A DNA stretch of 64,000 bases. Source: Cyanobacteriota bacterium (GTDB lineage: Bacteria > Cyanobacteriota > Cyanobacteriia > PCC-6307 > Cyanobiaceae). The notes below the pieces were generated by a model. It made no database searches. It saw only the letters and a list, made by a program, of their open reading frames with translations, and had not been told where the DNA came from. Where the stretch lies: positions 256,001 through 320,000 of the forward strand of contig JBJOMY010000001.1 in assembly GCA_046052125.1 (NCBI GenBank), given 5' to 3'. The translations under genes and the position numbers were made by a program. This document shows positions 22,366-38,877 of the stretch, piece by piece. Within the stretch, counting starts at the first letter, position 1. Each line of letters opens with the position of its first letter.

Positions 22366-25300
22366 TCAAGAACCCCTTGCAGACTCCGCCTGAACATCTC
22401 CAGATGTCTGTTCAACGGATAGGCGGGTGAAGCGATCTTGTTCAGGCTGAGCAGCAATCCGGCACAACCGGTTGATCTGCTCCGCTTCTTCGATCGTGTT
22501 AGCCAGGCCGCTCGTTAATCCGGGGGAGCCCACCACGATCGACAGGCATTGAGCCCGACTGATCGCCACATTCAGGCGGTTTGGTGAGAGCAGAAAGCCG
22601 AGGCCTCTGGGTGCGTCATCGCCACTGCTCGCCGTGAGCGACAGGATCGCAACCGGTGCCTCCTGTCCTTGGAACTTGTCCACAGTGCCAACTCTGGCTT
22701 TGCCGTCCAAGCGCTGGCGCAGGCGGTTGACCTGCACGTTGTAAGGAGCGATCACGAGGATCTCTTCTGAGGTCAGCCTGCCGCTGCCCTTGGCATGGCT
22801 GTAGGAGCCACCAAGAAGTGCAGACACGATCTGATCGATCCGCTCGATCTCGGCCTCACTGGTCACGCTGCAGCCGCTGTGGTGCACCGGTTCAAACACC
22901 AAGCCTCGATCTGGCAGGGCACTCCCCGAGGCAGACAGGCAAGGTCTGGCCCACTGAATGGTGTTCACAGCGTTGGCCGGGCTGGCCTGCAGGCGCCCGT
23001 CATAGAAGAGCTCGGAGACCACCGCCGTGATCGAGGGCTCCATCCGCCAGCTGGTGGAGAGAAACACGCCCTGATCCGCAGGCACCACATGGGCGCCCTG
23101 CATCAGGTAGTCGAGGCAGGAATCCCCAGAGGAGCCGGGGTGATCAGCCTGGGAGGGCTGAGCCAGCTGCTGCTGATCACCCACCAAAAGAATGGAGCGG
23201 GCGCAGCGAGCCATCACCAGCAGATTCGCCAGTGACATCTGTCCGGCCTCATCCACCACCAGCAGATCGAACTGATCAGCCAACGCCTCACGGCAGAACA
23301 TCCAGGCGGTCCCGCCCACCACGGCCATCGCAGGGGTGTTGCCATCGGGATGCACACACGGAATCCCTTTACCAGTGAGTGCCTCCTCCTGTTTGCTGCC
23401 ACTGCACTTCACCACCGCGCCGCTGAGTCCGCGCTCCGCGCAGGTGGCCTTGGCCTTAGTCAGCAGATTGTTGATGGCTGCGTGGCTATTGGAGCTGATC
23501 GCCACCCGCTTGCCCCGCGCCACGAGATCTGCGATCACCTGGCCTGTCACGGTGGTCTTGCCGGTGCCAGGCGGGCCTTGCAGCGCAATGGTGCAGCCGC
23601 TGCGGTTCGCAAGGAAATCAGCCAAGCGTGCAGACACACAGGCCGGATCGGCCGCCACGGCGTCATTCAGCGGCTTGAGCTCCGGAAGGGTTTGGCGTTC
23701 GAGCAGCTGCACCATCGCCTGAGGAATCGGTGACGCACCGCTCAGCCAGGCATTGGCCTGCTCAAGCAGGCTGTCGCGCAACTTCTCGGTGATGTCGGCA
23801 GGAACAGCGATCAGGCTGCAGAGCTGTTCGGGAATGCCATCGCCGATGCCCTCAGCGCGCCTTTGATCCCGTTTGCTCCAGGGCAGCTTCAGGGTGACTT
23901 GGCCCCGTTCGGCGTCGAGCGCATCAATATCGAGTTTGAGGCCCGTGTCTGCAATTTCGAGCTGCGGGGCGCGATCGGGATCCCGCGCTCCGATCTTCAG
24001 GGGTTGGGATGGATCAAAGGAAAAGGTGTGATAGTCCGCGCCGGTGCGCTGGCTCTCGCGGGGCTGAACGCTGCGCCAGCGCGCTTCCGCGATGGATTCG
24101 CCGTCATCGATCAGATCAGCGGGGCTGAGTTCGGCCTTGTTGCGTCGATCGAAGTAGGCCCACCAGGCCACCTTGGCCTCACGGTGGTGAAAGGGCAGGA
24201 GCTGGGCGAGAAGCCTCTGAACACGCCAACTCAGTCCGCGTGGTCCGCACTCCTCTTGCGCCAACAGCAACGCTTCAGAGGCATTAGCCGCTGGATCGCT
24301 CTGCAGAGCCTCAGGAAGCTCGCCGATGAAATCCTCGCTCAGACGCTCCAGTGGCCAGGGTTCCTTTGCAGGCTGTTCTGCTTTGTCCTGCTCAAGTGGT
24401 TGCTCCGGTAGGCCTTGCCCACGCCGCAGATCGAGCAGCCAGTCGTGCAGAAAAACCGTGGACTCGCAGTCTTCCCGGTTGTAGTTCTCGATACCCAGAA
24501 GTAACGGGCTGCCTTCAGGTGCTTCACCCGGCAGGCGAGATTCGCCTGAGTTCTGCCAGTTGAGGTAGGCCACCAGCGAATCGCCGGCATTAGTCACCTC
24601 AGCCGCGCGCTGCTCCATGTAGAGGTGCTCCACCTTCTTGATCGAGTAGCTGGGCTCACCGAGCACGATCGAGCCGGTCACCGCCGGCAGCAGATCAACA
24701 AGCAGGCCTGAGCGCAGCCACTCATCGATCACCGCTTCTCGGGTGGAGTGTTGCTGCGCCAGCCGGCGCATGGCCGTTTTCTCGTAGCTGGCGTAGTGGT
24801 AGATCCTCAGGCCCGGATAGCGGCTTCGGCGTTCTTCCACCCAGTCCACCCAGGCTTCAAAGGCTTTCTTTTCTTCTGCTGGGGTGTGAGCCCACCAGGC
24901 CTTGAATTGAGGCGCGCTATCGGGAACCTCACGAAAGCAGGCACCGAAGAGGTACTCGAGCTTGGTGCCGGCCACCGCATCCTGAATCCCTTCCATGTCG
25001 AACCAGATGTCACCGGCATCGGCGGCTGGCAAAGCAGCCAGACCTTTGCCTGGGACAACCGGCCGCAGGCGATAGGCGGGACGGCCGTTGGCATCAGGGG
25101 GAGTGATCTGCAGCTGAGCCTGTTGGCGTAGCTCGTGCAGGGCTTCTGGATTCAGCCCAGGGACGGCGGTTCCTGCCGGTACAGCCGCCAGTTCTTCGAT
25201 GGTGGTGACGCCCGCAGCGCGGAGCTTGAGGCGCTGGTTCTGGCGCATGTTCGCCACCAGCATCAGGTCACGTTGATCAGCCAGTCGTTGCTCAATCCAC

Positions 25301-25953
25301 GCCGTCCAGCCGCCGTGATCTCCGGGCATGTCCTCAGGAACCTTCTGCGGATCAAACGCCTCTCGAAAGGCGCGGTAGCGCTGCCTCAGCGACTGATACC
25401 AGGCCCAGAACTGGTCGCTTCGGTAGCGCTGAAAGCGACCGCCGCCGAGGTAGAGCTCGAAGTGATCAGGCCGCTTGCCAAGAACTGGGGTGAGTAGTTC
25501 GCAGTAGGCCGAGGCCTGCACCAAGAAGGTCGTCTTGGGCTTTGAGGCGAGCTTGCACTCGATCGGGATGTAGCTCCACGCGCCTAAATCCGATGGCTCG
25601 TCGATGCGTCGTAGCAAGTCAGCGGAACCGCGCATCTCCTCGTTGCAGAGCGAGGCCTGATGGATGAAATCAAACCCCTCCGCCATCGCTGCTTTGGTGG
25701 CGGCATAGTCGGCTTGGTTTTGCTTCCCAGGTAGGCGAGCAACGCGATAGCCCTGGGCTTCGAGCTTGTCGAGCAACACCCGCTCGTGGCGGATGCCGTC
25801 ATCGAACAGTTGCTGATCGAGGGCACTGACTTCGGGCTTGACACCCGCAAATACTCCGCGAGCTTCGAGCTCCTCCCACCAAGCACCGATCACTGGGCTG
25901 CGGGAGAAGAGGGAGAGCTTGCTGGGGGTAATGAGAGGCTTGCGGACTTCCAT
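22366..25953 (-). CDS. TM0106-type RecB/Cas4-like nuclease fused to RNaseH-like domain and SF1 (DNA2/Upf1-like) helicase
   Basis: GSADLL..IECKL..QASAY (PD-D/ExK); FDMEG..YNREDC (DEDD-like); QGPPGTGKT, VDEAGQ, GDQQQL, TVDKFQGQE, NRLNVAISRA. Confidence 0.9.
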   Translation of the reverse strand: MEVRKPLITPSKLSLFSRSPVIGAWWEELEARGVFAGVKPEVSALDQQLFDDGIRHERVLLDKLEAQGYRVARLPGKQNQADYAATKAAMAEGFDFIHQASLCNEEMRGSADLLRRIDEPSDLGAWSYIPIECKLASKPKTTFLVQASAYCELLTPVLGKRPDHFELYLGGGRFQRYRSDQFWAWYQSLRQRYRAFREAFDPQKVPEDMPGDHGGWTAWIEQRLADQRDLMLVANMRQNQRLKLRAAGVTTIEELAAVPAGTAVPGLNPEALHELRQQAQLQITPPDANGRPAYRLRPVVPGKGLAALPAADAGDIWFDMEGIQDAVAGTKLEYLFGACFREVPDSAPQFKAWWAHTPAEEKKAFEAWVDWVEERRSRYPGLRIYHYASYEKTAMRRLAQQHSTREAVIDEWLRSGLLVDLLPAVTGSIVLGEPSYSIKKVEHLYMEQRAAEVTNAGDSLVAYLNWQNSGESRLPGEAPEGSPLLLGIENYNREDCESTVFLHDWLLDLRRGQGLPEQPLEQDKAEQPAKEPWPLERLSEDFIGELPEALQSDPAANASEALLLAQEECGPRGLSWRVQRLLAQLLPFHHREAKVAWWAYFDRRNKAELSPADLIDDGESIAEARWRSVQPRESQRTGADYHTFSFDPSQPLKIGARDPDRAPQLEIADTGLKLDIDALDAERGQVTLKLPWSKRDQRRAEGIGDGIPEQLCSLIAVPADITEKLRDSLLEQANAWLSGASPIPQAMVQLLERQTLPELKPLNDAVAADPACVSARLADFLANRSGCTIALQGPPGTGKTTVTGQVIADLVARGKRVAISSNSHAAINNLLTKAKATCAERGLSGAVVKCSGSKQEEALTGKGIPCVHPDGNTPAMAVVGGTAWMFCREALADQFDLLVVDEAGQMSLANLLVMARCARSILLVGDQQQLAQPSQADHPGSSGDSCLDYLMQGAHVVPADQGVFLSTSWRMEPSITAVVSELFYDGRLQASPANAVNTIQWARPCLSASGSALPDRGLVFEPVHHSGCSVTSEAEIERIDQIVSALLGGSYSHAKGSGRLTSEEILVIAPYNVQVNRLRQRLDGKARVGTVDKFQGQEAPVAILSLTASSGDDAPRGLGFLLSPNRLNVAISRAQCLSIVVGSPGLTSGLANTIEEAEQINRLCRIAAQPEQDRFTRLSVEQTSGDVQAESARGS

Positions 25954-25956
25954 GTC

Positions 25957-27789
25957 TCACAGATCCCAGATGCCCTTCAAAAGTGATACGTATTCACTCT
26001 GATTCTTGCGAACAACATCTGGGGTCCAGCGATCTCCTGCGTTGAGAACTTTCGTTACCGAGGGGAAGGCTGCAACTTTACCGGTTTCATCTTTTCCGGC
26101 TTCATCTTTTCCGGCTTCATCGTCGTTGGCGTTCTTTCGCGACCGGCCCGTAAAATATACCTCTTTCTTTGTTTTAAAGTCATAGTTTTGCGCTTGCGAG
26201 TTCTTCCGCCTGGAAAGCAGCACAAGGTTCCCTATCTTATTCTTTAACTCATCATGATCGTATTCATTCCACTCGGCTTTCCAGTCCCGACTGAGCGTCT
26301 GCGGTGCAACGTGCTCAATCGACGCACGGCGGTGAGAAAGGCTAACGCTAATCCCTCCATCCGCGAGAGCAGAATCAAGCCTTAGCATCACATAGAAAGC
26401 ATGGGGTTCACCATAAAGACTTCCACTAATTATTTCCAGAACTTGTTCTGCATCTTTCTGATTAATAGACTGGTGGAGTGCGGTCAAAGCCTCCTGCTGG
26501 CTTCCGTCAACGGCGGTTAGTGCGGTCAGTATTGGGCCATACCGCCTAGCTCGCTGATTAACATTCTCGCCCAAGATCAGCGAAACAGCAGCCGTGCGCT
26601 CCAGTAGCCTGAAAAAGTCATGAACACCACCCATTTGATAGCGATTTCGACTTAAGAACGAGATAGCGGCGGGTTGCCAGTCTGAATTCCCAATATTCTC
26701 AAGAAGTGGTAAGTAAAGGCGATTAACCTTCTCCCTCCCATCCGGGTTGGGAGTCTCAATGGCCCTCTTTAGAATCAACTCATAGGCATCCGAACTCTCG
26801 ACCAGCACGCTTTCAACGAATTCTTTTGCCACGGCTGGCGTCAAGCTACCGCGGCCTTGGCTTCCGATTTGCAAAACGTCTTTCTTAAAATCGTCAAAGA
26901 GATTCTTGGTGGAGCGTCGCTTAGACTTGATTCGGTGTATGTGCGAGAAGAGAAGCTCGAAATATCGCCTCGACTCTGTGGGGTCATCAGATCCCGATGA
27001 AGCAAGCCTCGTGAGATCCGCTTCTTCTTGCTCCCAAATCTGATTTATATACTCGCGCTCTGTATCGTCGCCAAACTGCTCTAGTATCAAAGCTTTGATT
27101 AGGTCTGAGACTCCCAAAGAGAGCCCTCTATTATTCATCGTCGAAAAAATACGATAAGCACTTTCGAAGTCGGTGCTTGCAACTATTACAAGGCATGCCT
27201 TGTGCTTGACGAAGCCCAGAAAATCTCTGAGTCGGCATGTATCAATCCTGTCTTCAGAGGTAAACTCTTTTTGGATTTCATCCCGCATCAATAGCGCATT
27301 TGAGCGCATGCATTTCTGGCTAGAGGGGAGAACCGCCTCCATCTGGCCTAGAGAGTCAAACTCCTCTGCGCTCCGAATGAACTTATTGAAGAACCAATCG
27401 TCAGAGTTCTTGCCAGTAGATCTGAGCCTGAGGCCAGCGTACCTGCTGTTCGCAGATTCGCTGATTAAAAGAGCAGAAAGGTCAGGCCGATCTTTAACGT
27501 CCACGAGGCTTCGAATAGCGGCTAAGAGTATCGACAGGGTCGTCAGCCTTTGCTGGCCATCAACCACTTCTGCTTCGACTGACGACGAACTTCGCTTGAC
27601 AACAACAATGCTTCCCAGAAAATACTCTTGCTCTGGAGATTCCTCGAAAGCATCAAGAAGATCTTGAACAAGAGACTTTGCCTGCTCTTTCCCCCAGGCG
27701 TAAGGCCTTTGGTAAGCAGGAATAACAAACTGATAATGGCTTGGGCTCAGAATCTCATAGATCTTCTTATGCGCAGCCGAGATTGACAT
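25957..27789 (-). CDS. GmrSD-family modification-dependent (Type IV) restriction protein, DUF262-DUF1524
   Basis: IPAYQRPYAW, VVDGQQRLTT, FSTMNNRG; C-terminal SIEHVAPQ..IGNLVLL..N (HNH-like). Confidence 0.9.
   Translation of the reverse strand: MSISAAHKKIYEILSPSHYQFVIPAYQRPYAWGKEQAKSLVQDLLDAFEESPEQEYFLGSIVVVKRSSSSVEAEVVDGQQRLTTLSILLAAIRSLVDVKDRPDLSALLISESANSRYAGLRLRSTGKNSDDWFFNKFIRSAEEFDSLGQMEAVLPSSQKCMRSNALLMRDEIQKEFTSEDRIDTCRLRDFLGFVKHKACLVIVASTDFESAYRIFSTMNNRGLSLGVSDLIKALILEQFGDDTEREYINQIWEQEEADLTRLASSGSDDPTESRRYFELLFSHIHRIKSKRRSTKNLFDDFKKDVLQIGSQGRGSLTPAVAKEFVESVLVESSDAYELILKRAIETPNPDGREKVNRLYLPLLENIGNSDWQPAAISFLSRNRYQMGGVHDFFRLLERTAAVSLILGENVNQRARRYGPILTALTAVDGSQQEALTALHQSINQKDAEQVLEIISGSLYGEPHAFYVMLRLDSALADGGISVSLSHRRASIEHVAPQTLSRDWKAEWNEYDHDELKNKIGNLVLLSRRKNSQAQNYDFKTKKEVYFTGRSRKNANDDEAGKDEAGKDETGKVAAFPSVTKVLNAGDRWTPDVVRKNQSEYVSLLKGIWDL
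26081..26121. repeat. 15-bp tandem repeat (CCGGCTTCATCTTTT, about 2.7 copies) encoding DEAGK-DEAGK-DETGK
   Basis: Directly visible in the sequence. Confidence 0.9.
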
Positions 27790-27814
27790 AAATAGCTTTG
27801 GTGTTGGATGAAGG

Positions 27815-28450
27815 CTAGATCGAAAGCGTCAGGGCTGCGAGTTTTCCACTAACAAACGCACCTGTATCAATTCCTATCCGATAGGGGTAGCGAGCCACTG
27901 AGTAATCGCTCCGGTAGGTGTGCCCATGCACAACGGTGAACGGCAGACCGTGATCACCCTTCAGAAACGGGCTGCGTATCCAGAGGAGATCTTCAGGCCG
28001 TTGAGCGGTCAGAGGCACGCCAGGACGGACACCCGCATGAACAAACAGGTAGGAACCGCGCTGCGTGACCAGCGGCAGGCGCTGCAGCCAATCACGGTGG
28101 TCTCGGGCTACGGGCAGGAACGCCACATCTCCACCGTTCCATTCCCAAAGCTCCGTGGCTTCGCCTGGGGTGTCCTCCGCAAGTGCGTCAAGCAGCATCT
28201 GCTCGTGGTTGCCCCGCAGCACCGTGACTCCTGCCAGCCCATAGGCCGCAGCGTTGTCCTGGAGCTCGCGCACGAGCTCAATCACCTCCAAGTCACCATT
28301 CGGCTCAGGGGAACGGTCGATCAGATCACCGAGCAGGATCAGCTCTGCTCCGCTCCCGAGGTGTGGCCAGAGCGCCTCGCGCAGCAACGTCGCGCAGCCA
28401 TGCACATCCCCGATCGCCACCACTGGGGTGTTGGTCTCAGTCGTTGTCAT
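27815..28450 (-). CDS. Calcineurin-like metallophosphoesterase (PPP/PrpA/ApaH-like)
   Basis: GDVHG, GDLIDR, RGNHE, HAG, HGHT, IDTG motifs. Confidence 0.9.
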   Translation of the reverse strand: MTTTETNTPVVAIGDVHGCATLLREALWPHLGSGAELILLGDLIDRSPEPNGDLEVIELVRELQDNAAAYGLAGVTVLRGNHEQMLLDALAEDTPGEATELWEWNGGDVAFLPVARDHRDWLQRLPLVTQRGSYLFVHAGVRPGVPLTAQRPEDLLWIRSPFLKGDHGLPFTVVHGHTYRSDYSVARYPYRIGIDTGAFVSGKLAALTLSI

Positions 28451-29690
28451 CAACCGCCTCCCACACGCTGAGGCTGGAGCGCAGCGATTCACGGCGCAGG
28501 CGCTTACGGCTGAGGTTGCGGTCCTGCTGCATCAGCGCACGTTTCTCGGCCAGGAGTTGCCGTTCGCGCTGGATCGCCGCGCTCTGAGGGAGGTCCGCGA
28601 GCCGTTCATCCATGGAGGCAAGGCTGAATAGCGCGCCCTGGAGATCGCCTTGATCCAGGGCCTCGATGGCCTGGCGGCGTTCACGGTTGGCCTGGAGCAG
28701 GGCGAATTGCTCAGCCACAACTGGATCGCACTCCAGATCCAACAGTTCAGCCTTCGGTTGCACCGGCAGGGTGAGGTGCTCCACCAGGCTCTGGCGACCC
28801 TGTTGCTCAGGGCTATCCCAGGCCAGGCGCACGCTGGCGATCTCCTGATTCGCGGCCCAGGCTGGAAGCTCCAGGCGCACACCCACGTGCAGCTCCTGGC
28901 CATGGCGCAGGTTGGGGAGCTGGAAGTTCCCGGCCACGGTCTGCGGCAGATCATTGAGCACATCGACCAGCTCGGCGCCGTGTTTGGCGCGGATGCCGAG
29001 GCTCACCTTGCGGCCGATCGTGCTCGCCAACCCCTGGAGCTCGCTGGCGTAGAGATCGGCAAGCTGCCTGGGGGATTCGATCTGCGCGAGGGTCCCGTCA
29101 CCTGCGGCGGCGATCGCACCCATCAGGTCTTCATCGAACCCGCTGCCCAGGCCAAAGGCGCTGGTGCTGATCCCCCGCTGCGTCAGCCCCTCCACCTTGG
29201 CGGCGATGGCGCCTGCCTCGGTGAGGCCTTCGTTGGCCTGACCATCGGAGAGCAGCATCACCCGGTTGAGCGCTGTTGGATCCAGCTGCTGCGCCACCTG
29301 GGTGGCACCGGCCAGCCATCCGTCGAACAGGGCCGTGCATCCACCAGCGTCGATCGTGTTGATTGCACTGATGAAGGTCAGCGGATCGCGCACCGGTTGC
29401 GAGGGCACCAGCACGTTCACCTCATCGTCAAAGGTGACGATCGCCAGCCGGTCACGCGCCGTGAGCTCACCGGCCAGGAAGCGGGCCGCTTTGCGGGCAT
29501 AGCTGAGCTTGCTCCCGGCCATAGAGCCGGAGCGATCGATCACCAGCGCCAGATTCAGCGGTGGCCGCGGGCGGGTGGACAGCTCTGGCGGCAACGGCGG
29601 AGCGCTGATCTGGATCAGCAGATCCAGGGTGGTGGCGCCATCAGCCGCCACCGCCGGCCGCAGCGGCCGGAAGTACAGGGAGGGTTGCAT
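28437..29690 (-). CDS. von Willebrand factor A domain protein (cytoplasmic)
   Basis: MIDAS DRSGS, GCTAL, LLSDGQAN; no signal peptide; helical C-terminus. Confidence 0.9.
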   Translation of the reverse strand: MQPSLYFRPLRPAVAADGATTLDLLIQISAPPLPPELSTRPRPPLNLALVIDRSGSMAGSKLSYARKAARFLAGELTARDRLAIVTFDDEVNVLVPSQPVRDPLTFISAINTIDAGGCTALFDGWLAGATQVAQQLDPTALNRVMLLSDGQANEGLTEAGAIAAKVEGLTQRGISTSAFGLGSGFDEDLMGAIAAAGDGTLAQIESPRQLADLYASELQGLASTIGRKVSLGIRAKHGAELVDVLNDLPQTVAGNFQLPNLRHGQELHVGVRLELPAWAANQEIASVRLAWDSPEQQGRQSLVEHLTLPVQPKAELLDLECDPVVAEQFALLQANRERRQAIEALDQGDLQGALFSLASMDERLADLPQSAAIQRERQLLAEKRALMQQDRNLSRKRLRRESLRSSLSVWEAVDDND

Positions 29691-29749
29691 GATTTTGGTT
29701 GAGAAAAACGTTGGGTGATCGGTTCTGCTCGGCCGATCAGAGGAGGAAT

Positions 29750-30403
29750 TCAGTCCTGGTGATCGAGTTGCTCGCGCAGGCGGTCGATCAGTCGATTGAG
29801 CCAGGCCTCACGGCGGGAGCCCGCTGGCGGGATCGAGGCCGATTCGCTGAGGTGCAGCTCCACACCCGGCGCCAGGGAGAAGCGATGCCAGCGGCTCGAG
29901 GACGCACTGCTGCGGCCTGACATCCGGCTGGCCCGCAGCGAGGGCGAGCGACTGCTCAGCGGTGAGCCGAGCAGTGGCAACAGCGACGCTGATGCCTCGC
30001 TCTCGCCACTCGGGTCCGCCTGCAAGTTCTGCAGATAGGCCAGGGCATCGTTGCTGGGCTCCACGGATGAGGCGAGCTGAGCGCTCTCATCGAGTTGGCT
30101 CCACTGCTGCTGAAGTTCAGCGTCACTGCCCACCACCAGGGGGGCAATGGCCGAGAGGCTCAATCCGCGCCGGGCCAGGGTGCGAACCAAGAGCAACTGC
30201 AGCAGATGGCGCTGGCTGTAGAGCGCACGGCGCCCGTCTTTGCCGGGTCGATCGATCAGACCCTCTGTGGCATAGAGGCGCACCGTGCGCGGCGTGATCT
30301 CCTCTCCCAGCCGTTCTCCCGCCAGCTCGAGCAACTGGTCGAGGCCATAAGCAGCCTCATCAGCGCCGTGAGCGGAAGCAGAACCGGAGGGGAGCCTCGC
30401 CAT
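29750..30403 (-). CDS. MerR-like HTH transcriptional regulator
   Basis: ITPRTVRLYATEGLIDRP..ALYSQRHL..GLSLSAI; C-terminal WHRFSLAPGVELHL. Confidence 0.85.
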   Translation of the reverse strand: MARLPSGSASAHGADEAAYGLDQLLELAGERLGEEITPRTVRLYATEGLIDRPGKDGRRALYSQRHLLQLLLVRTLARRGLSLSAIAPLVVGSDAELQQQWSQLDESAQLASSVEPSNDALAYLQNLQADPSGESEASASLLPLLGSPLSSRSPSLRASRMSGRSSASSSRWHRFSLAPGVELHLSESASIPPAGSRREAWLNRLIDRLREQLDHQD

Positions 30404-30409
30404 GCCCGA

Positions 30410-30455
30410 ATGATTACACGCTTGCACTGCAACTGTCAACATCCTGAGTAGGATG
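30410..30455 (-). promoter_or_regulatory. Putative sigma70 promoter/operator of the MerR-vWA operon
   Basis: Minus strand TTGACA-18 nt-AATCAT, 6 nt before ATG; dyad TTGCA-N-TGCAA (30422-30432) in the spacer; second dyad CATCCT-N4-AGGATG (30440-30455). Confidence 0.6.
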
Positions 30456-30475: not shown

Positions 30476-30703
30476 ATGCCTCCCCTTCTTGCTTCCCTGG
30501 CCGCTGCTGCTCTGCTCGCGCAGGCCAACCCCCTGATGATCCCCGCCAAAAACGGCAACACCTGCCCGGGCGGCACCAGCTACGCCGGTGCGGGCTACTG
30601 CAAGGTGCGCGGCAATGTTCAGTACTTTCCTGCCAAGAACGGCACGACCTGCCCGGGCGGTAGTTCCTATGCCGGCGCTGGCTATTGCAAGGTGCGCCAG
30701 TGA
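30476..30703 (+). CDS. Small secreted protein with two tandem Cys-pair repeats (PAKNGxTCPGGxSYAGAGYCKVR)
   Basis: Hydrophobic leader; internal duplication with synonymous divergence. Confidence 0.8.
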   Translation: MPPLLASLAAAALLAQANPLMIPAKNGNTCPGGTSYAGAGYCKVRGNVQYFPAKNGTTCPGGSSYAGAGYCKVRQ

Positions 30704-31365
30704 GCGCCTCAACCCCGGTGATCAGCGCCCGCTACGGAGAGGCCCTGCTCTGGGCAGAAGCGATCCACCGCGACCAGCGCCGTAAGGGCAAAGCCGTGCC
30801 CTACATCTCCCACCTGATCAGCGTCAGCGCCCAGGTATGGGAAGACGGCGGCACGGAAGATCAGGCCATCGCCGCCTTGCTGCACGACGCCATTGAGGAC
30901 GCCGGCCAGAGCCATGCCTCCATTGCAGAACGCTTTGGAGAAGCCGTGGCCGACATCGTGCGCGATTGCACCGACACCAGCGACAACGCACCACCGGGCG
31001 AGAAGGAGCCGTGGCTGCTACGCAAAACCCGCTACATCGCCTCCCTCGAGCACAAGCCCGAGGCCTCTCTGTTGGTGACAGCAGCCGCCAAGGCCCACAA
31101 CGCCGGCGACATGGTGCTCGACGCCAGGCGCGATCCAGCGATGTGGAGCAAGTTCAACGCTGGGCTCGAGGGATCGGCTTGGTATCTGCTGCGGATCCAC
31201 CAGCAGTTGAAACGCCAGCTGCCTCAGAGCCGTTCGGTGGAACGGCTCGGGGAAGCCGTGAGTGAAATCCTCGTGATGGACAGCTACAAACGCCTCGTGC
31301 CAGAGGGGTTCGCACCGGCTGTATGGGCAGCGGGATATGCGGAGCGACTAGGGGCGCAGGAGTGA
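30700..31365 (+). CDS. HD-domain hydrolase, SpoT-HD/Mesh1-like (small alarmone hydrolase-like)
   Basis: HRDQRRK, PYISHL, ALLHDAIED, CTD; last motif reads AAAKAHN rather than ADKxHN. Confidence 0.85.
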   Translation: MSASTPVISARYGEALLWAEAIHRDQRRKGKAVPYISHLISVSAQVWEDGGTEDQAIAALLHDAIEDAGQSHASIAERFGEAVADIVRDCTDTSDNAPPGEKEPWLLRKTRYIASLEHKPEASLLVTAAAKAHNAGDMVLDARRDPAMWSKFNAGLEGSAWYLLRIHQQLKRQLPQSRSVERLGEAVSEILVMDSYKRLVPEGFAPAVWAAGYAERLGAQE

Positions 31366-31982
31366 TTCCCCTGTTCTTGCCTCTAGCAGCCGTTGCCCTA
31401 CTGGCCCAAACCCGCACCGCCACCGTGCTCTCCATCGGTGATGGAGACACCCTGCGGGTGCGCGAGGGCAGCCGCGTCCTGAACGTGCGCCTGGCCTGCA
31501 TCGATGCGCCGGAAACCAGTCAGGCACCCCATGGCGCCAGCGCCCGAACGCAGTTGCAGGTTCTTGCACCGGTTGGGTCAGCCGTTGAGCTGCGGATCAA
31601 AGCCACCGATCGCTACGGCCGCTCTGTGGCAGAGCTGAGCAGGAGCGGCCGCAACCTGAACCAGGCCCTGGTGGCAACCGGTGCAGCGTTTGTGTATTGG
31701 CATTACATCCAAGGCTGCGACCGCCAGACCTACAGCCGCCTGGAAACCGAGGCGCGGCTCAAAGGGCTGGGGGTGTGGTCCGTAAAGGGTGGAGTCCTGA
31801 GGCCATGGGACTACCGCTCGAAACAACGCCAACCCAGCAGCAATTCCTCTATCCCCTCAGGTCAGAAGTACACCTGTAGCCAGATCGGCTCGTACGACCG
31901 AGCACAGGTGCTGTTGCAACAGGGCCACAGCTATCTCGATCGCGATGGCGACGGCGTGGCTTGCGAGGGCTTACGGGGATAG
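31362..31982 (+). CDS. Secreted thermonuclease (SNase) with C-terminal Excalibur Ca-binding domain
   Basis: GDGDTL, VRLACIDAPE, DRYGRSVA; C-terminal C..LDRDGDGVACE. Confidence 0.9.
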   Translation: MIPLFLPLAAVALLAQTRTATVLSIGDGDTLRVREGSRVLNVRLACIDAPETSQAPHGASARTQLQVLAPVGSAVELRIKATDRYGRSVAELSRSGRNLNQALVATGAAFVYWHYIQGCDRQTYSRLETEARLKGLGVWSVKGGVLRPWDYRSKQRQPSSNSSIPSGQKYTCSQIGSYDRAQVLLQQGHSYLDRDGDGVACEGLRG

Positions 31983-32478: not shown

Positions 32479-33864
32479 TTGATGGGCCACAGAGTTTTTC
32501 GGCAATTGCTCGCAGGAATTTGGCTCGCAGGAGCCGCGCTGCAGGTGCCGCTACCAGCTCGCTCAGCGGACGATTGCAAGAACCCCGCTCGGCTGGATCC
32601 CCAGGAACGCACACGCTGCTCTCTGCAAGACGGTGATGGCGGAGGGAAGAAGGCGGTGGATGGTGGCACTGGTCTCCAGGTCATCGAGCTCACCACTGAC
32701 CTGGACTGGAAGAACGCCAACAAGGCCTCCATCCCCTGGTCAAAGGTCGTCAAGATCCGCTCCGCCCTCGATGGCACCTACGAGCTGGCGGTGTTTGATC
32801 GCGATTACACCTCCGACTTCAGTTCAGGCGCTAAGGAAGGGGTCGCAACCAAGTGGACCGTCGACACCCTCAAAGGTGTGGTGTTCACAGCAGGTGGCTG
32901 CGGCTTTTGGACCTGCACCTACGGCCGCGGAACGGTGGCTGACCTGCCAGATGTCGTGGAACTGCACACCAGTGGCAAGAGCTATCGGCTCTATGGCTCG
33001 AGCGGTGAATTCCCCATCCCGCAGGCCTTCATCGATGACCTGCTCGCAGCAGGTGCCGGGGCCTCGCTCAATCTGAAGCTGATCCGCGGATCCACTGGCG
33101 GCTCAGTGGTGCCCGTTGGCAAAGGAACGGTGGCGGCTCTCCAGCAGCTGTACAGCAAAGCCATTCAGACATGGGAGAAACCGGCCATTGCTTTGACGCC
33201 TCAAAACGTGAGCGGTCAGCCGCTACTGGTGGAGACCGTCGCAACCAGCTCCCTTCCCTCGGTTGTGATGCTCAAGAACGATCGAAGCATTGGCAGTGGC
33301 TTCGTGATCGCAGCCAATGGCCTGATCCTCACCAACCGCCATGTCACAGCCGGCGGTAGCCGTCGTTTCCAGATCAGCGCCGAAGGTGGTCTGAAAACAG
33401 AGGGCGAGGTGATTTATGTGGATCGCAAGCTTGACTTCGCCTTGGTGCGGGCGGATGGGCTCAGTCGCCTTAAGCCATTACCGCTTTGCTATGCGAGCTA
33501 TCCCAAACCAGGCCAGGCTGTGGTGGCGCTGGGATCACCGTTGGGGCTAGCCGGAACGGTGACCCAAGGGATCGTCAGCGCCGTGCGCGCCCCGAGCGGT
33601 GACCTCAAAGACACGGCTCCCAACTACGTCACCCTGATCCAAACGGACGCCTCGATCAGCCCCGGTAACAGCGGTGGGCCGTTGCTCAACAGCAGCGGCG
33701 AGGTGGTGGGCGTCAACACCTGGGCGCTGCGCGGTGATGACGGCCGCGCCCAAAACGTGAACTTCGCGATCTCCATCGTCGACGTGCTCAAGTCGCTGGA
33801 AGCACGCAGCCCTGGCCTGATCAAGGGCGCCAACGCCTGCGGCAATCAGATCGCCTCTAAGTGA
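32479..33864 (+). CDS. Exported trypsin-like (S1C) serine protease without PDZ, with uncharacterised N-terminal domain
   Basis: Signal peptide; GSGF, LTNRHV, DFAL, IQTDASISPGNSGGPL. Confidence 0.9.
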   Translation: MMGHRVFRQLLAGIWLAGAALQVPLPARSADDCKNPARLDPQERTRCSLQDGDGGGKKAVDGGTGLQVIELTTDLDWKNANKASIPWSKVVKIRSALDGTYELAVFDRDYTSDFSSGAKEGVATKWTVDTLKGVVFTAGGCGFWTCTYGRGTVADLPDVVELHTSGKSYRLYGSSGEFPIPQAFIDDLLAAGAGASLNLKLIRGSTGGSVVPVGKGTVAALQQLYSKAIQTWEKPAIALTPQNVSGQPLLVETVATSSLPSVVMLKNDRSIGSGFVIAANGLILTNRHVTAGGSRRFQISAEGGLKTEGEVIYVDRKLDFALVRADGLSRLKPLPLCYASYPKPGQAVVALGSPLGLAGTVTQGIVSAVRAPSGDLKDTAPNYVTLIQTDASISPGNSGGPLLNSSGEVVGVNTWALRGDDGRAQNVNFAISIVDVLKSLEARSPGLIKGANACGNQIASK

Positions 33865-34911: not shown

Positions 34912-37900
34912 ATGAGACTAGTCAGAAATACCGGCCAAGACCGCGTCGCCGAGATAGTCCGGCGATCGCTTCAAAAGAGCGTGGGATTAAGCGTGGTCAG
35001 CGAGAGCCTATCCATATTTGGTTTTGCCGACCTCCTCGCTGAACTCAATAGCGTGGACTCTTGTCAGCTCATACTGCCACCAAAGGAAACGGATCTTGAA
35101 ATACTGGGAACCACAGCAGATAGACCTGCACGGAACCGCCTTCAGAGTCGCTGGCTAGCAAGTCGTCTCCTGCAATGGATAACAGAGAAAGGGAATATTC
35201 GACGTGCGGCAACAAAAGTTCCTCAAGGTGCAATCGTTGTTCGGGATGGCGACCTTCAGCCAGTGCAGGCATTGATCGGCGCTCTCTCCTTGAGCAGCCA
35301 CGGACTGGGCCTCACACCAGGCAATCCACTGAGCTTGATTCAGGCTTCAGAGAACAAAGAGGAAGCTCAGTTAATCGATAGTTGGCTGAATGCACAATGG
35401 AACTTGCTCGCAGAAGATGAACAAGCTAAGGCCTCACTGCTAGACCACCTACGTCCCATAACAGAGCACCGTGCGCCCATACTGATTTATGCGCTGATTC
35501 TTGAAAAGCTTTTTAGCGGTCAAGAAGGTCAGTTAGACGAAGATCAGATCGTTAATGCCGCGACAGGAATCCGCAAGACCGTCGTCTGGAACAAGCTTTA
35601 CAAATTCCAGCGTGATGGCGTGATCGGCGCAATCGACAAACTCAACAGGTTTGGAGGATGCATCATTGCCGATAGCGTTGGGCTCGGCAAGACATTCGAG
35701 GCACTGGCCATCATCAAGTACCAGGAATTGCGCAATGACCGCGTTTTGGTGCTCTGCCCTAAGCGACTTCGCGACAACTGGACGCTCTACACAGCCAACG
35801 ATCGTCGGAATGTCCTTGCTGCGGATCGCTTCAACTATGACGTTTTGAACCACACGGACCTCTCACGCGATGCTGGGCTCTCGGGCGATATTGACCTTGC
35901 CCATGTGAACTGGGGCAATTACGACCTCGTCGTCATCGACGAATCACATAACTTCCGAAACAAGAAGACGCCCCAAGCGGAAGGTGAGACCCGCTACGAC
36001 CGGTTGATGCGCAAGATCATTCACGAGGGGGTGAAGACACGGGTGCTCATGTTGTCTGCTACCCCGGTTAACAATCGCCTTGCTGATCTGCGCAACCAAA
36101 TTTCATTCGCGACGGAAGGTGACGACAGAGCCCTGATCGACCATGGCATCAACAGCATCGACGCCACCACTCGCTTAGCGCAGAAGCAATTCAACCGTTG
36201 GCTCGATCTGGAGGAGGCGGACCGTACGCCGTCTCTTTTGGTCGAGATGCTGGGCTTCGACTACTTCACGCTGCTTGACCATCTAACGATCGCGAGATCC
36301 AGGCGCCACATCGAGAAGTACTACGGCACTGCCGAAACCGGCCGTTTCCCCGACCGACTCAAGCCAATCAATATCAAGGCAGATGTGGACAGTGCAGGGG
36401 CTTTCCCGCCCATTGCCGACATCAATCGAGAGATCCGCCGATTGAACCTGGCTTCCTATGCACCATTGCGCTATGTGCTCCCACACAAGCAGGCGGCCTA
36501 TGACCGCAAGTACAGCACCGAGGTCAAGGGCGGGAGCGGGTTCTTTCGCCAGGCAGACCGCGAGGAAAGCCTGATCCATCTTCTGCGCGTCAACGTTCTC
36601 AAGCGAATGGAGAGCGCTGTTTCCTCCTTTGCGCTGACGTTGCAACGCCAGCTCTCTGACGTAGAAGCCACTCTCGCTCGCATCGAGGCACAAGCTGATG
36701 AGCTCGAGGAAGTTGATATCGAGAATGTGGACCTTGACGATCCAACTTTTGAGAGCCTTCTCGTGGGCCGCAAGATCAAGGTCCTGCTAAAGGATGTCGA
36801 TCTTGTTCGTTGGAAGCAGGACCTGAGCGAAGACCGCGACAGGCTGGTCAAGCTTGTCGCAGCTGCCCAAGACGTTGAGCCAGAGCGGGACGCCAAGCTC
36901 CAGGCCTTGCGCGAGCTGATTGCTCAAAAATGCCAACAGCCAATCAATCCCGGCAACCGCAAGCTGATTGTCTTCACAGCGTTTGCCGATACCGCCAGGT
37001 ATCTCTACGAGCAGCTTGCTCCGTGGGCGAACAAGACGCTTAGTCTCCATGCGGCATTGGTCACAGGCACCGGTAGCAACCAAGCCACGTTGCCGCTTCT
37101 GCGAAAGGACCTGGCGTCGATCCTGTCTGCTTTTGCGCCACGCGCAAAGGAACGGCCTGCGGATCTTGCGAGCGAGGGTGAACTGGAACTGCTCATCGCC
37201 ACCGACTGCATCTCTGAGGGGCAGAACCTGCAGGACTGCGATTGGCTGATCAACTACGACATCCATTGGAATCCAGTACGGATCATCCAGCGTTTCGGTC
37301 GTATCGACCGCCTTGGCTCACCAAACGAGCGGATTCAGCTGGTCAACTTCTGGCCAAACATGGAACTTGAGGAATACATCAACTTGGAACAGCGCGTCAG
37401 CGGGCGCATGGTCTTGCTCGACATCTCCGCCACAGGCGAGGAGAACCTGATCGAGCAGCAGTCGGGCAACCCGATGAATGACCTTGAGTACCGGCGTAAG
37501 CAGCTCCTGAAGCTCCAAGACGCGGTCATCGATCTCGAGGACCTCTCTACTGGCGTTTCCATCGCCGACCTGACGCTGAGCGACTTCCGCATCGACCTCG
37601 CTGAGTACAGGCGGGCACACCCCGAGGCGCTGGACTCGTTACAGCTGGGCACGATGGCTGTCACGACAACGGCTGAGGCCGATCTTCCCCCCGGCATCAT
37701 CTTCTGTCTTCGTTCGGAGAGCGAGGCTGCCAAGCAGGCGTTCGAGCCTGGATACCCCATGGCACCCCATTACCTCGTGCATATGGGCGATGACGGTGCC
37801 GTGCTGCTGCCCTTTACCCAAACCAAACGCATCCTTGACCGGCTGAAGCGTCTATGCGGGGGACGGGACCAACCCGACCAAGCGGCTTGTGCTCGCTTTG

Positions 37901-38109
37901 ACAAAGCCTCGAAGCAAGGCGCGGACATGCGTCACGCGCAGCGCTTGCTGGCAGCAGCAGTGGGTTCCGTTGTCGGCAAGACGGAGCAACGTGCCGTCGC
38001 CAGCTTGTTCGCCCCGGGTGGCACGCACATATTGGCTGGCGAGTTTGCCGGGATCGATGACTTTGAGGTGATTGCCTTCCTCGTCATCCTTCCGGAGGCG
38101 GCGCAATGA
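34912..38109 (+). CDS. SNF2-family helicase/ATPase with degenerate PLD-like N-terminus
   Basis: ADSVGLGKT, VIDESHNFR, LSATP, SEGQNLQ, QRFGRIDR. Confidence 0.9.
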   Translation: MRLVRNTGQDRVAEIVRRSLQKSVGLSVVSESLSIFGFADLLAELNSVDSCQLILPPKETDLEILGTTADRPARNRLQSRWLASRLLQWITEKGNIRRAATKVPQGAIVVRDGDLQPVQALIGALSLSSHGLGLTPGNPLSLIQASENKEEAQLIDSWLNAQWNLLAEDEQAKASLLDHLRPITEHRAPILIYALILEKLFSGQEGQLDEDQIVNAATGIRKTVVWNKLYKFQRDGVIGAIDKLNRFGGCIIADSVGLGKTFEALAIIKYQELRNDRVLVLCPKRLRDNWTLYTANDRRNVLAADRFNYDVLNHTDLSRDAGLSGDIDLAHVNWGNYDLVVIDESHNFRNKKTPQAEGETRYDRLMRKIIHEGVKTRVLMLSATPVNNRLADLRNQISFATEGDDRALIDHGINSIDATTRLAQKQFNRWLDLEEADRTPSLLVEMLGFDYFTLLDHLTIARSRRHIEKYYGTAETGRFPDRLKPINIKADVDSAGAFPPIADINREIRRLNLASYAPLRYVLPHKQAAYDRKYSTEVKGGSGFFRQADREESLIHLLRVNVLKRMESAVSSFALTLQRQLSDVEATLARIEAQADELEEVDIENVDLDDPTFESLLVGRKIKVLLKDVDLVRWKQDLSEDRDRLVKLVAAAQDVEPERDAKLQALRELIAQKCQQPINPGNRKLIVFTAFADTARYLYEQLAPWANKTLSLHAALVTGTGSNQATLPLLRKDLASILSAFAPRAKERPADLASEGELELLIATDCISEGQNLQDCDWLINYDIHWNPVRIIQRFGRIDRLGSPNERIQLVNFWPNMELEEYINLEQRVSGRMVLLDISATGEENLIEQQSGNPMNDLEYRRKQLLKLQDAVIDLEDLSTGVSIADLTLSDFRIDLAEYRRAHPEALDSLQLGTMAVTTTAEADLPPGIIFCLRSESEAAKQAFEPGYPMAPHYLVHMGDDGAVLLPFTQTKRILDRLKRLCGGRDQPDQAACARFDKASKQGADMRHAQRLLAAAVGSVVGKTEQRAVASLFAPGGTHILAGEFAGIDDFEVIAFLVILPEAAQ

Positions 38110-38864: not shown

Positions 38865-38877
38865 GGCCTAAGACACG

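Follow-up and report, generated by a model that had tools for sequence, protein, structure and literature searches.

Gene content and organization of the locus

The locus described here lies in a genomic contig of a member of the family Cyanobiaceae (Cyanobacteriota). In the following, the window means the whole analysed stretch of 64,000 nucleotides. The features considered are:

22366-25953, minus strand: nuclease-helicase, 1195 aa
25957-27789, minus strand: GmrSD, 610 aa
27815-28450, minus strand: PPP-family metallophosphatase, 211 aa
28437-29690, minus strand: ArnB-like vWA protein, 417 aa
29750-30403, minus strand: MerR-like regulator, 217 aa
30410-30439, minus strand: promoter with embedded putative operator (motif match)
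30476-30703, plus strand: secreted repeat peptide, 75 aa (translation)
30685-31365, plus strand: HD_4 RelA/SpoT-type hydrolase (Pfam)
31323-31982, plus strand: secreted SNase + Excalibur nuclease (Pfam)

A preliminary description had reported five tightly packed co-directional genes with intact motifs, and all five ORFs were found on the minus strand. A list of longest ORFs places the starts of the MerR and phosphatase genes too far upstream; they were reset to the ATG at 30403 and at 28450, respectively. With these corrected starts the close spacing is reproduced: 59 nt between the MerR and vWA genes, a 14-nt overlap between vWA and phosphatase genes, 25 nt between phosphatase and GmrSD and 3 nt between GmrSD and nuclease-helicase. 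The vWA MIDAS, the phosphatase motifs GDVHG, GDLIDR and GNHE, the DGQQR motif of GmrSD and the helicase motifs GPPGTGKT and DEAGQ are all present. Also the reported absence of a kinase or MoxR partner holds for the block and its adjoining genes. No ADP-ribosyltransferase gene is encoded near the block, and a Pfam search of the window revealed neither an ADP-ribosylglycohydrolase nor a Macro domain.

Of the single obvious promoter proposed earlier, the strong site before the MerR gene stands (30439-30410, minus strand; TTGACA-18-AATCAT, 10/12 consensus matches), its 18-nt spacer containing the palindrome TTGCAgTGCAA; it is not the only candidate, however, as a weaker promoter-like site (9/12) within the 3' end of GmrSD (26183-26154) could drive the nuclease-helicase independently. 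The sole minus-strand terminator-like site past the promoter occurs within the helicase gene (23085-23066), a second one is located upstream of the promoter (30566-30554), and none was found between the five genes. Judged from these signals, transcription of the block from one promoter is plausible.

Whether the divergent plus-strand genes belong to the block is uncertain. The start codons of the small ORF and the MerR gene are 72 nt apart, a homologue of the HD_4 protein (38% identity) is found two genes away from the MerR-vWA pair in the related locus L001, and SNase + Excalibur genes occur near the module in L004 and L019.

The MerR-like regulator and its putative operator

The regulator contains a MerR_1 domain (Pfam, E 3.6e-10) and is composed of a winged helix-turn-helix, a helix of the type that builds the dimer coiled coil of MerR proteins, a further helix with the conserved pattern N.AL.YL, a linker at residues 133-166 that is disordered and rich in serine, and a C-terminal unit of conserved beta-hairpin and helix (W.R...PG.ELH). 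Residues R39, R42, Y44, G57 and E182 are invariant (alignment A2, 19 partners). The structure model reaches a pLDDT of 78, with 88-94 per 10-residue block in the C-terminal unit.

A search of the window and of 1.31 Mb of loci found the word TTGACA..TGCA.TGCAAG at three places only, the MerR promoters of the window, L004 and L005, which thus share a clade-specific operator variant. More distant relatives show TGACA-N8-TGTCA, which overlaps the -35 box TTGACA; each of its 10 occurrences in the 1.31 Mb of loci precedes a MerR gene by at most 110 nt, and the motif is present in 10 of the 21 MerR upstream regions checked. The promoter spacers of these genes measure 17-18 nt, unlike the long spacer of classical MerR activators. 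We suggest that the protein is a repressor of its own gene, where it would bind the dyad that covers the -35 box and the spacer.

The vWA protein and its conserved pairing with the regulator

The VWA domain (Pfam, E 4.7e-15) carries MIDAS residues D52, S54, S56, T119 and D149 that are invariant in 50 sequences. According to the structure model (pLDDT 94, pTM 0.88), the protein is built from a split beta-sandwich, the vWA domain with intact MIDAS and a C-terminal four-helix bundle. Its top fold match is ArnB (8S05_A; E 1.5e-22, TM 0.66/0.71), and a profile comparison matched it to 8S05 with E 2e-24 (profile positions 48-403).

For comparison, 85 related loci were considered, 83 of which were searched by tblastn, with genes called as greedy ORFs. 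In 33 of the 83 the 1.5 kb before the vWA gene contain a same-strand match to a MerR profile; 18 of these 33 were built into the profile and 15 are new. These loci span Cyanobacteria, Deinococcota, Acidobacteriota, Chloroflexota and Gemmatimonadota, and the pair is annotated on the plasmids pDFI1, pAQ7, pSYSA, pCHL69-1 and pCHL69-2. The association of the vWA protein with the regulator is much more constant than that with any hydrolase. In many MerR-vWA loci (e.g., L008, L009, L015, L020, L033, L046) a recognisable removing enzyme and a downstream nuclease are both missing, and the core probably works without either. By sequence comparison, a MerR-like regulator together with an ArnB-like vWA protein represents the conserved core of this family.

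Such a core might simply control an ordinary stress regulon (HspR-like heat, redox or metal), unrelated to phages and located near defence genes by way of a variable island. The nearest NCBIfam models of the MerR domain are HspR and CueR, though both far under cutoff; more than 120 vWA relatives at ≥71% identity in Synechococcus and Cyanobium suggest a stable lineage gene; and several loci (e.g., L012, L046) have housekeeping neighbours only. On the other hand the family recurs on plasmids and in an integrative conjugative element, and its neighbours include CRISPR, BREX-like, restriction and toxin-antitoxin genes. Moreover, a transposase and an integrase flank L005, and the third enzyme described below is swapped among functional equivalents. 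Taken together, we regard a pure stress regulon as distinctly unlikely.

The phosphatase and the variable third enzyme

The phosphatase possesses a Metallophos domain (Pfam, E 3.6e-13), and its NCBIfam matches are far under cutoff. Among solved structures it is closest to 2qjc, a putative Ap4A hydrolase (E 2.8e-7), and to the lambda phosphatase 1g5b (E 1.8e-6). With a putative nucleotide hydrolase and a protein phosphatase among these structures, a nucleotide substrate is as possible as a protein. GC3 drops to 0.43 in the last full 30-codon block of its gene. In L004 and L005 the phosphatase is kept after the vWA gene (64% identity), and in both the complete MerR-vWA-phosphatase triad is found; homology to the window extends as far as the stop codon of the phosphatase gene and ends there.

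In other loci this third place is occupied by PARG (L001), ADP-ribosylglycohydrolase (L025, L030, L058, L073), ARPP-1 (L021) or Macro proteins (L003, L007, L010-L012, L050), whereas Metallophos proteins are found in L004, L005 and L028. Fusions among 30 long members of the vWA family include Macro (11), ADP_ribosyl_GH (11) and FHA (1). In the vWA tree the phosphatase-linked sequences form one clade with 100% support, nested in a clade of 48 sequences (96%) with Macro, ADP-ribosylglycohydrolase, PARG and ARPP representatives. The third part thus varies, a PPP phosphatase being used in the window and its two nearest relatives among the loci retrieved and enzymes of these other families elsewhere. 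The triad would be the picocyanobacterial form of the widespread MerR-vWA family, and its third part an enzyme that strips a covalent protein mark. A hint on this mark may come from the MerR linker, with 30-37% Ser+Thr in the 3 phosphatase-linked loci vs 7-27% in 16 others, a contrast that stems from one clade and counts as one evolutionary event.

The same variability can be read as mark removal and repair: the vWA protein would be a peptide-binding chaperone that recruits host proteins modified by a phage enzyme, and the phosphatase would either take the mark off these proteins or act on the nucleotide set free, while the MerR-like protein would set expression only and the nucleases would be a second line of defence or unrelated. 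The parts of Iyer et al. 2022 bearing on this (PMC9503650) predict ADP-ribosylglycohydrolase host systems without a linked writer, vWA relatives have ADP_ribosyl_GH, Macro, PARG and ARPP-1 either as fusions or as neighbours, and an HD_4 gene lies beside the module in the window as in L001. However, the window lacks the ADP-ribosylglycohydrolase and Macro domains, its regulator is MerR-like and not of the Nudix or WYL type described in those parts of PMC9503650, and the ArnB regulatory architecture, with a pairing more constant for the regulator than for any hydrolase, fits signalling better than a chaperone role. We consider this reading unlikely.

GmrSD and nuclease-helicase as probably separate acquisitions

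GmrSD comprises GmrSD_N (E 1.2e-35) and GmrSD_C (E 2.3e-20; both Pfam) and matches the PADLOC models Orf5 (E 1.5e-120) and HEC-06. Its GC content is 49% vs 62-66% in the neighbouring genes (ranges 0.46-0.51 vs 0.59-0.69), its GC3 about 0.5 vs about 0.8, and among the matches listed only 7 relatives besides the protein itself have at least 70% identity. Low GC and scarcity of close relatives both indicate that GmrSD, a type IV restriction enzyme, is a recent insert directly after the phosphatase.

The nuclease-helicase shows RNase_H_2 (E 1.5e-16) plus AAA_11, AAA_12 and AAA_30 (Pfam), the RecB-like nuclease model TIGR03491 (E 8e-58), and a helicase part that matches IGHMBP2, Upf1 and Dna2 structures. 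From these matches it can be classified as a TM0106-family RecB-like nuclease with an RNase H-like domain and an Upf1/Dna2-like SF1 helicase. It is 87% identical to a protein of Synechococcus sp. LA31. Its plasmid neighbours are McrBC + HsdR, a divergent WYL gene or a DUF2357 protein, and MerR, vWA and phosphatase genes are absent around it in all three plasmid loci inspected; it belongs to a stand-alone family that is widespread and occurs in defence islands. The match lists of vWA and nuclease-helicase have six apparently matching sources in common, none of them in the GmrSD list, which suggests, indirectly and with one chance coincidence seen between lists of different sources, an older MerR-vWA-phosphatase-nuclease-helicase arrangement without GmrSD.

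In the preliminary description all five genes formed one candidate undescribed defence operon, with co-occurrence in other genomes among its tests. None of the 85 other loci holds all five, and the window GmrSD and nuclease-helicase gave no tblastn match in the 83 loci. From the proposed sensor or regulatory head with two nuclease effectors, the MerR-vWA-phosphatase head is conserved (L004, L005) but the five-gene unit is not fixed. An obligate system, in which this head senses infection and the nucleases are dedicated effectors, would agree with the tight packing of the genes on one strand, uninterrupted by terminator-like sites and preceded by a strong promoter-like site, and also with other MerR-vWA or vWA modules that precede GmrSD-like or helicase-nuclease genes. 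Same-strand GmrSD-like, helicase, PLD-helicase, HNH or HsdR genes follow in L084, L085, L027, L028, L030 and L031. Examples of such arrangements are:

pCHL69-1: MerR-vWA, then a 764-aa GmrSD homologue
pCHL69-2: MerR-vWA, then two other genes, then helicases
L027: vWA, SNF2/NOV_C, GmrSD_N
L028: vWA and PLD-helicase
L030: vWA, then an ORF without family, then a methyltransferase/HNH gene
L031: vWA and HsdR

With at least six other loci in which defence genes follow the module, the module may be a sensor head with nuclease cargo. Nevertheless, besides the missing co-occurrence, the downstream genes of other loci belong to different families each time, in L004 and L005 the triad occurs by itself and is followed by unrelated genes, GmrSD is foreign in composition and rare among relatives, and the nuclease-helicase occurs on the inspected plasmids without the other partners. 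We consider an obligate five-gene system highly improbable. The locus is best read as a composite of a widespread regulator module and two separately acquired DNA-cutting defence genes.

Proposed function of the composite locus

We propose a self-regulated, modification-gated MerR-vWA-phosphatase switch, joined by the recent GmrSD insert and the stand-alone TM0106 nuclease-helicase as inducible cargo, and assign to this explanation a probability of roughly 0.55. The module would work as a transcription switch modelled on the archaeal ArnA/ArnB/PP2A switch, with MerR-like and vWA proteins binding each other. A hypothetical writer encoded outside the locus, be it a kinase of the host or an enzyme of an invader, would mark the vWA protein in its helical bundle or the MerR-like protein in its serine-rich linker and so alter repression, and the phosphatase would reset the switch. 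Because of the short gaps after the phosphatase and GmrSD genes and of the missing terminator-like sites between them, transcription from the MerR-controlled promoter probably continues through both nuclease genes, which would therefore behave as inducible cargo. The locus may also have an anti-phage effect.

Comparison with known systems

The closest counterpart is ArnA/ArnB/PP2A from Sulfolobus acidocaldarius (PDB 8S05). In the relevant parts of PMC12852372, ArnB is a protein with vWA domain, beta-sandwich and helical bundle acting in gene regulation; ArnC phosphorylates the bundle, and the PPP enzyme PP2A takes the phosphate off again. ArnB has a small protein as its partner in this role (same source and parts of PMC7472852). 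The window vWA protein shares the ArnB architecture, and, as ArnB is reset by a PPP-family phosphatase according to that text, the window also encodes one. In contrast, its partner is a MerR-type DNA-binding protein instead of a zinc-finger + FHA protein, its phosphatase is encoded in the operon with no kinase linked, and modules of its type are bacterial, often mobile and in relatives equipped with ADP-ribose-removing enzymes instead of a phosphatase.

The TerY-P triad, as presented in the corresponding section of PMC11090510, consists of vWA protein, PP2C phosphatase and Ser/Thr kinase, acts in stand-alone defence and is also embedded in CoCoNuT type IV restriction operons, where a phosphorylation switch is proposed. 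Common to both, as far as that section goes, are a vWA protein and a protein phosphatase beside type IV restriction and Upf1-like helicase genes. The window differs by a phosphatase of PPP and not PP2C type, by the lack of a kinase and by its MerR regulator, and its vWA protein and phosphatase match no PADLOC model, any TerY-P model included, at E <= 0.01.

Section 3.8 of Iyer et al. 2022 (PMC9503650) predicts that ADP-ribosylglycohydrolase host systems counter viral ADP-ribosylation. The parts it names comprise vWA chaperones, calcineurin-like, HD (alarmone-type) and HAD phosphatases, and restriction-fold nucleases with helicases. The window resembles these systems, as portrayed there, in its vWA protein, calcineurin-like phosphatase, alarmone-type HD protein and restriction-fold nucleases with helicases and in having no linked writer; the defining ADP-ribosylglycohydrolase domain is missing, and the regulator is MerR-like, not Nudix/WYL. 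A word search for "MerR" in PMC9503650 matched author names of the reference list only. The preliminary description had not recognised the combination as a named system, which agrees with our searches: PADLOC models gave no match to the three head proteins at E <= 0.01, and a literature search found no paper naming a MerR-vWA-phosphatase module.

With GmrSD, BrxU and SspE the window GmrSD shares a DUF262 domain with DGQQR and a DUF1524 nuclease domain, but it is only about 35% identical to its best plasmid homologues among the matches listed. The WYL regulators BrxR and CapW and the CapH/CapP pair are regulators that travel with varied defence systems, and the module described here resembles them as a portable regulator upstream of changing defence cargo. 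WYL genes also adjoin the nuclease-helicase on pC33 and vWA genes in L051 and L052. In contrast with these regulators, the unit in the window would comprise two or three proteins (MerR, vWA and a mark-removing enzyme), with a putative control over its cargo.

The five-gene block

The block consists of five genes on the minus strand of a window with a GC content of about 66%, and the closest proteins to the window's own are found in freshwater Synechococcus and Cyanobium. It is not one fixed system. We read it as a module (MerR-like regulator, ArnB-like vWA protein and PPP phosphatase) followed by a recently inserted GmrSD gene and an older neighbouring nuclease-helicase gene, and these last two are called its cargo here.

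22366-30403, minus strand: five-gene block, co-directional open reading frames
ATG at 30403, minus strand: start of the MerR-like protein, 217 aa (corrected from an over-extended longest ORF)
ATG at 28450, minus strand: start of the phosphatase, 211 aa (corrected in the same way)
25957-27789, minus strand: GmrSD

With the corrected starts the tight packing proposed in the preliminary description holds (59 nt, a 14-nt overlap, 25 nt and 3 nt). All domains it named are recovered by Pfam and NCBIfam, and the motifs it took for intact are so, i.e. the MIDAS of the vWA protein, GDVHG, GDLIDR and GNHE of the phosphatase, DGQQR of GmrSD and the Walker A motif of the helicase. Its single obvious promoter survives in part, because besides the strong promoter-like site at 30439-30410 a weaker one lies inside the 3' end of the GmrSD gene. 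Terminator-like sites were not seen between the five genes, and a Ser/Thr kinase gene is indeed absent among them and their neighbours, as was claimed.

GmrSD and nuclease-helicase as separate units

The GmrSD protein carries both domains that define a GmrSD type IV restriction endonuclease: DUF262/GmrSD_N (PF03235, E 1.2e-35) with VDGQQRL in the translation and a C-terminal DUF1524/GmrSD_C His-Me nuclease domain (PF07510, E 2.3e-20, residues 462-599). It also matches PADLOC Orf5 (E 1.5e-120), and cutting of modified DNA is predicted from these domains. The composition of its gene is foreign to the block, with a GC content of 0.46-0.51 versus 0.59-0.69 in the surroundings and a GC3 of about 0.5 versus about 0.8 in the MerR and vWA genes; the fall starts already within the final 30 codons of the phosphatase gene. 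At the stop codon of the latter also ends the homology of the window to L004 and L005, the nearest fetched relatives with the same MerR-vWA-phosphatase triad. Besides the window's own protein, seven proteins at least 70% identical to GmrSD are among the matches listed. Around the insert only short repeats of chance level were found, and the window contains no tRNA genes as island borders.

A fixed co-occurrence of the five genes, as first supposed, has to be abandoned: in tblastn both the GmrSD and the nuclease-helicase of the window are absent from the 83 loci with vWA relatives (L001-L083). The nuclease-helicase is conserved among picocyanobacteria, with 87% identity to the protein of Synechococcus sp. 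LA31, and its family is widespread on plasmids (240 matching records, 56 of them with at least 80% coverage), where its neighbours are McrBC and HsdR, a divergent WYL gene or a DUF2357 protein. A stricter view, that it never accompanies the module, is softened by six size-matched contigs from matching sources that the vWA and nuclease-helicase hit lists apparently have in common; none of them is in the GmrSD list, which stems from a search with residues 250-610, and one short size match (1981) between lists from different sources is due to chance. Indirectly, this points to close relatives that carry vWA and nuclease-helicase genes on one contig without GmrSD.

The last ~24 residues of the nuclease-helicase (22366-22440, minus strand) overhang the homologue of Synechococcus sp. 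LA31, the GC3 of the last codon block being 0.38, and this 3' end may be a second recombination border. Identity with Mokosh (MkoA/MkoB or MkoC) was considered and rejected: the helicase match is partial (residues 877-1169 against MkoA positions 771-1099 of 1112), the PADLOC matches to MkoA and MkoC centre on the C-terminal helicase part, and the protein has no PLD domain. Literature searches on TM0106 or TIGR03491 yielded nothing relevant.

The conserved core and its operator

The conserved core is formed by the MerR-like regulator and the ArnB-like vWA protein. The model of the latter (pLDDT 94) comprises strands at 4-29 and 224-307, the vWA domain at 45-222 and helices at 323-406. Its best fold match is ArnB of Sulfolobus (8S05_A, E 1.5e-22, TM 0.66/0.71), and among solved structures ArnB again gives the best profile match (E 2e-24). 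In a profile search 1410 clusters at 50% identity match at E <= 1e-30, and all 120 listed matches to the vWA protein are at 71% identity or above. At least 80 loci were obtained from one genome scan with the family alignment (two close relatives are among the matches listed), three plasmid loci having been added first and two more later; genes in the loci are greedy ORF calls. Many of the inspected relatives are plasmid-borne, part of mobile elements or neighbours of defence genes. Phage records gave two matches, both weak and partial.

The MerR partner has four parts, namely a winged helix-turn-helix, a coiled-coil helix, a disordered linker and a conserved C-terminal beta-hairpin plus helix with an invariant Glu. 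In the window the N-terminal domain matches PF13411 (E 3.6e-10), and the model shows helices at 21-90 and 94-113, corresponding to the winged helix-turn-helix followed by the coiled-coil helix. A look-up in a protein atlas returned generic MerR clusters only. Matches to the MerR profile occur on the same strand within 1.5 kb upstream of the vWA gene in 33 of the 83 loci (18 used to build the profile and 15 new). The two proteins would bind each other; a complex prediction of the vWA protein (alignment A1), MerR residues 160-217 (A2) and Mg, made for the idea that E182 enters the MIDAS, scored 0.23, with the mark at 0.32.

The promoter-like site at 30439-30410 on the minus strand encloses the palindrome TTGCAgTGCAA. 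A clade-specific variant of the operator word is common to the window, L004 and L005 and absent elsewhere in the 1.31 Mb of loci. More distant relatives have TGACA-N8-TGTCA instead, which occurs 10 times in these 1.31 Mb, each time at most 110 nt upstream of a MerR gene; it was found in 10 of 21 MerR upstream regions checked and overlaps the TTGACA box. Judged by sequence, the putative operator thus has the dyad placed inside the gene's own promoter that is a trait of the MerR family. MerR activators use an over-long promoter spacer of 19-20 bp; here the spacer is 17-18 nt in the window and 17 nt in relatives read by eye, so it is not of the long activator type.

An exchangeable third enzyme

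Among 30 long members of the vWA family, 11 have a C-terminal Macro domain, 11 an ADP-ribosylglycohydrolase and one an FHA domain. Together with genes linked to vWA in the loci, the following third parts were recognised, and many MerR-vWA loci have no recognisable third enzyme.

Third part of the module in the loci with vWA relatives
Microbial PARG: L001
Macro fusion: L003, L007, L010-L012, L050
ADP-ribosylglycohydrolase, fused or adjacent: L025, L030, L058, L073
ARPP-1: L021
Metallophos: L004, L005, L028

The vWA tree comprises 99 rows (the window, 75 of the 83 loci, two plasmid copies of Cyanobacterium sp. HL-69 and 21 representatives); the eight remaining loci have no intact vWA gene in the ORF calls. 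The three rows linked to a phosphatase group as one clade (100% support), nested in a clade of 48 rows (96% support) that also takes in Macro, ADP-ribosylglycohydrolase, PARG and ARPP rows. We read the third part as exchangeable, an enzyme for taking off a protein mark, either phosphate or ADP-ribose. The linker of the MerR partner contains 30-37% Ser+Thr in three phosphatase-linked loci versus 7-27% in 16 others, a contrast confined to one clade, which gives a hint on the identity of the mark.

L005 (CALRJS020000038.1) is labelled Sphingobacterium thalpophilum, has 61.5% GC and carries the picocyanobacterial triad with 66% vWA identity, so a binning error is possible for this contig; the triad is followed by a transposase and an integrase. 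A separate branch of the vWA tree (L036, L040, L056, L061) is fused to FHA and has an ABC-type ATPase ahead; in L036, L056 and L061 CBS genes are also present upstream, and in L036 and L056 vWA-FHA is followed by a phosphoribosyltransferase gene. This branch seems to be a different system, one that reads phosphorylation. In L065, L079, L080 and L083 a distant vWA gene stands ahead of genes for a histidine kinase and an OmpR-type response regulator, a three-gene set that recurs in these four loci.

Cargo and island context

What follows the module differs from locus to locus. On plasmid pCHL69-1 of strain HL-69 (L084) MerR-vWA precedes a 764-aa GmrSD homologue (36% identity), and on pCHL69-2 (L085) a near-identical module precedes a hypothetical gene, a pentapeptide-repeat gene and helicases. 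These near-identical MerR-vWA copies with different downstream genes in one strain are a natural experiment for the cargo idea. A conjugative element (L027) has vWA, SNF2/NOV_C and GmrSD_N; L028 shows Metallophos, an ORF without family, vWA and a PLD-helicase; L030 has an ADP-ribosylglycohydrolase, an opposite-strand ORF, vWA, an ORF without family and a methyltransferase/HNH gene; L031 has an Hhe-like protein, vWA and HsdR; and in L019 BREX-like genes precede MerR-vWA.

The window itself is a defence island, including a low-GC island:

34912-43858, plus strand: four genes, type III restriction-modification system and two extra genes
within it, plus strand: SNF2/HKD-type helicase (PADLOC C3a139, E 2.7e-111)
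within it, plus strand: DUF4391 gene
within it, plus strand: type III methyltransferase (E 4e-201)
within it, plus strand: type III restriction enzyme (E 0)

Several further genes surround the module. Divergent from the MerR gene is a 75-aa ORF (30476-30703, plus strand) with a signal-like N-terminus and two Cys-containing repeats (PAKNG.TCPGG.SYAGAGYCKVR), and the two may have the MerR operator region in common. An HD_4 (RelA/SpoT-type) hydrolase gene (30685-31365, plus strand) also lies divergently beside the module, as an HD_4 gene lies near the module in L001, and a secreted SNase plus Excalibur nuclease gene comes after it (both at 30685-31982, plus strand). A second SNase-like ORF (54824-55552, minus strand) matches the SNase of L004 in tblastx; SNase and Excalibur genes are near the module in L004 and L019, too. 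At 32479-33864 (plus strand) there is a trypsin-like protease with a C-terminal part weakly matching the protease part of PADLOC RT-Protease_XI models (E 1.3e-15), and no reverse transcriptase was seen adjoining it. Genes for a phosphoribosyltransferase-like protein, a nucleoside 2-deoxyribosyltransferase and the SelO protein adenylyltransferase are located at 46522-49786 (plus strand), 17-20 kb from the module; SelO is a writer of a covalent protein mark.

Proposed function

To our knowledge, it is largely unknown how infection is sensed and how costly nucleases are controlled in defence islands. The module would regulate itself through its own operator, and GmrSD and nuclease-helicase are both probably read through from its promoter, the block then being co-transcribed. 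We propose that it acts as a modification-gated switch, on the model of ArnAB/PP2A and given that the third enzyme is in every case one that takes off a covalent mark; the writer of this mark would be encoded outside the locus, and the marked protein would be the substrate of the phosphatase. To the more far-reaching reading we give a chance of only about one in five: MerR and ArnB-like vWA protein would constitute a portable self-regulated sensor of protein marks written by an invader that switches on whatever cargo is docked, with the linked enzyme resetting it. The marks on host proteins would be ADP-ribose in the Macro, ADP-ribosylglycohydrolase and PARG forms and phosphate in the phosphatase form, and the cargo switched on in the window, with presumed anti-phage activity, would be GmrSD and nuclease-helicase.

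If this sensor reading is true, a new class of infection sensor and regulator is common to many defence islands. Reading of phage-made protein marks would connect induced restriction with the ADP-ribosylation and phosphorylation that phages carry out on host proteins, and would provide a bacterial counterpart to the archaeal ArnAB switch. If no phage marks are read, the locus is still a clear case of a GmrSD gene inserted into an older operon. In either case the analysis separates a widespread module from its cargo, and the operator is conserved and therefore a clear handle for experiments.

Comparison with known systems

The three head proteins match no PADLOC model, in line with the earlier impression that the combination is not a named system, and literature searches found no paper on a MerR-vWA module by name. 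Searches on slr7059 and slr7060 found only one passing mention of Synechocystis slr7060, where it is called a vWA-type (YfbK-domain) protein with a YmdB-like domain fused to it.

ArnB combines a vWA domain with a beta-sandwich and a helical bundle. ArnC phosphorylates this bundle, the PPP enzyme PP2A reverses the reaction, and ArnB acts with its partner ArnA in gene regulation (PMC12852372). The modelled vWA protein of the window shares this architecture, with a split beta-sandwich, a vWA domain with MIDAS and a C-terminal helical bundle. It differs in its partner, which is MerR-like instead of an ArnA with zinc finger and FHA; in the vWA family FHA is seen only in fused form, on a tree branch of its own. 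Of the Hanks-type kinases and PPP phosphatase that make phosphorylation of the ArnB bundle reversible, the locus has a PPP phosphatase gene and no kinase, and any phosphorylation of the bundle here would depend on a kinase encoded elsewhere.

TerY-P triads likewise occur inside type IV restriction operons that also encode Upf1-like helicases (PMC11090510). Assignment to them was rejected: at E <= 0.01 no PADLOC family matches the vWA protein (TerY-P included if the library holds it), the phosphatase is of the Metallophos/PPP and not the PP2C type and has no PADLOC match, and the operon and its neighbours lack the Ser/Thr kinase gene.

Iyer et al. 2022 predicted host systems built on ADP-ribosylglycohydrolase against viral ADP-ribosylation (PMC9503650, section 3.8), with vWA chaperones, calcineurin-like and alarmone-type HD phosphatases and restriction-fold nucleases with helicases as parts; the regulators in that paper are of Nudix or WYL type, not MerR. 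Of the accessory parts, vWA, Metallophos, TIGR03491 with SF1 helicase and the HD_4 gene at 30685-31365 are present in the window. The ADP-ribosylglycohydrolase without linked transferase is absent from it and appears in relatives (11 of the 30 long family members and L025, L030, L058 and L073). Instead of a Nudix-HTH or WYL regulator there is a MerR-like one, and among the vWA loci WYL regulators are limited to L051 and L052, where the vWA genes next to them are distant ones. The module's parts and its theme were partly foreseen by the work on ArnAB, by the TerY-P triad and by the prediction of 2022.
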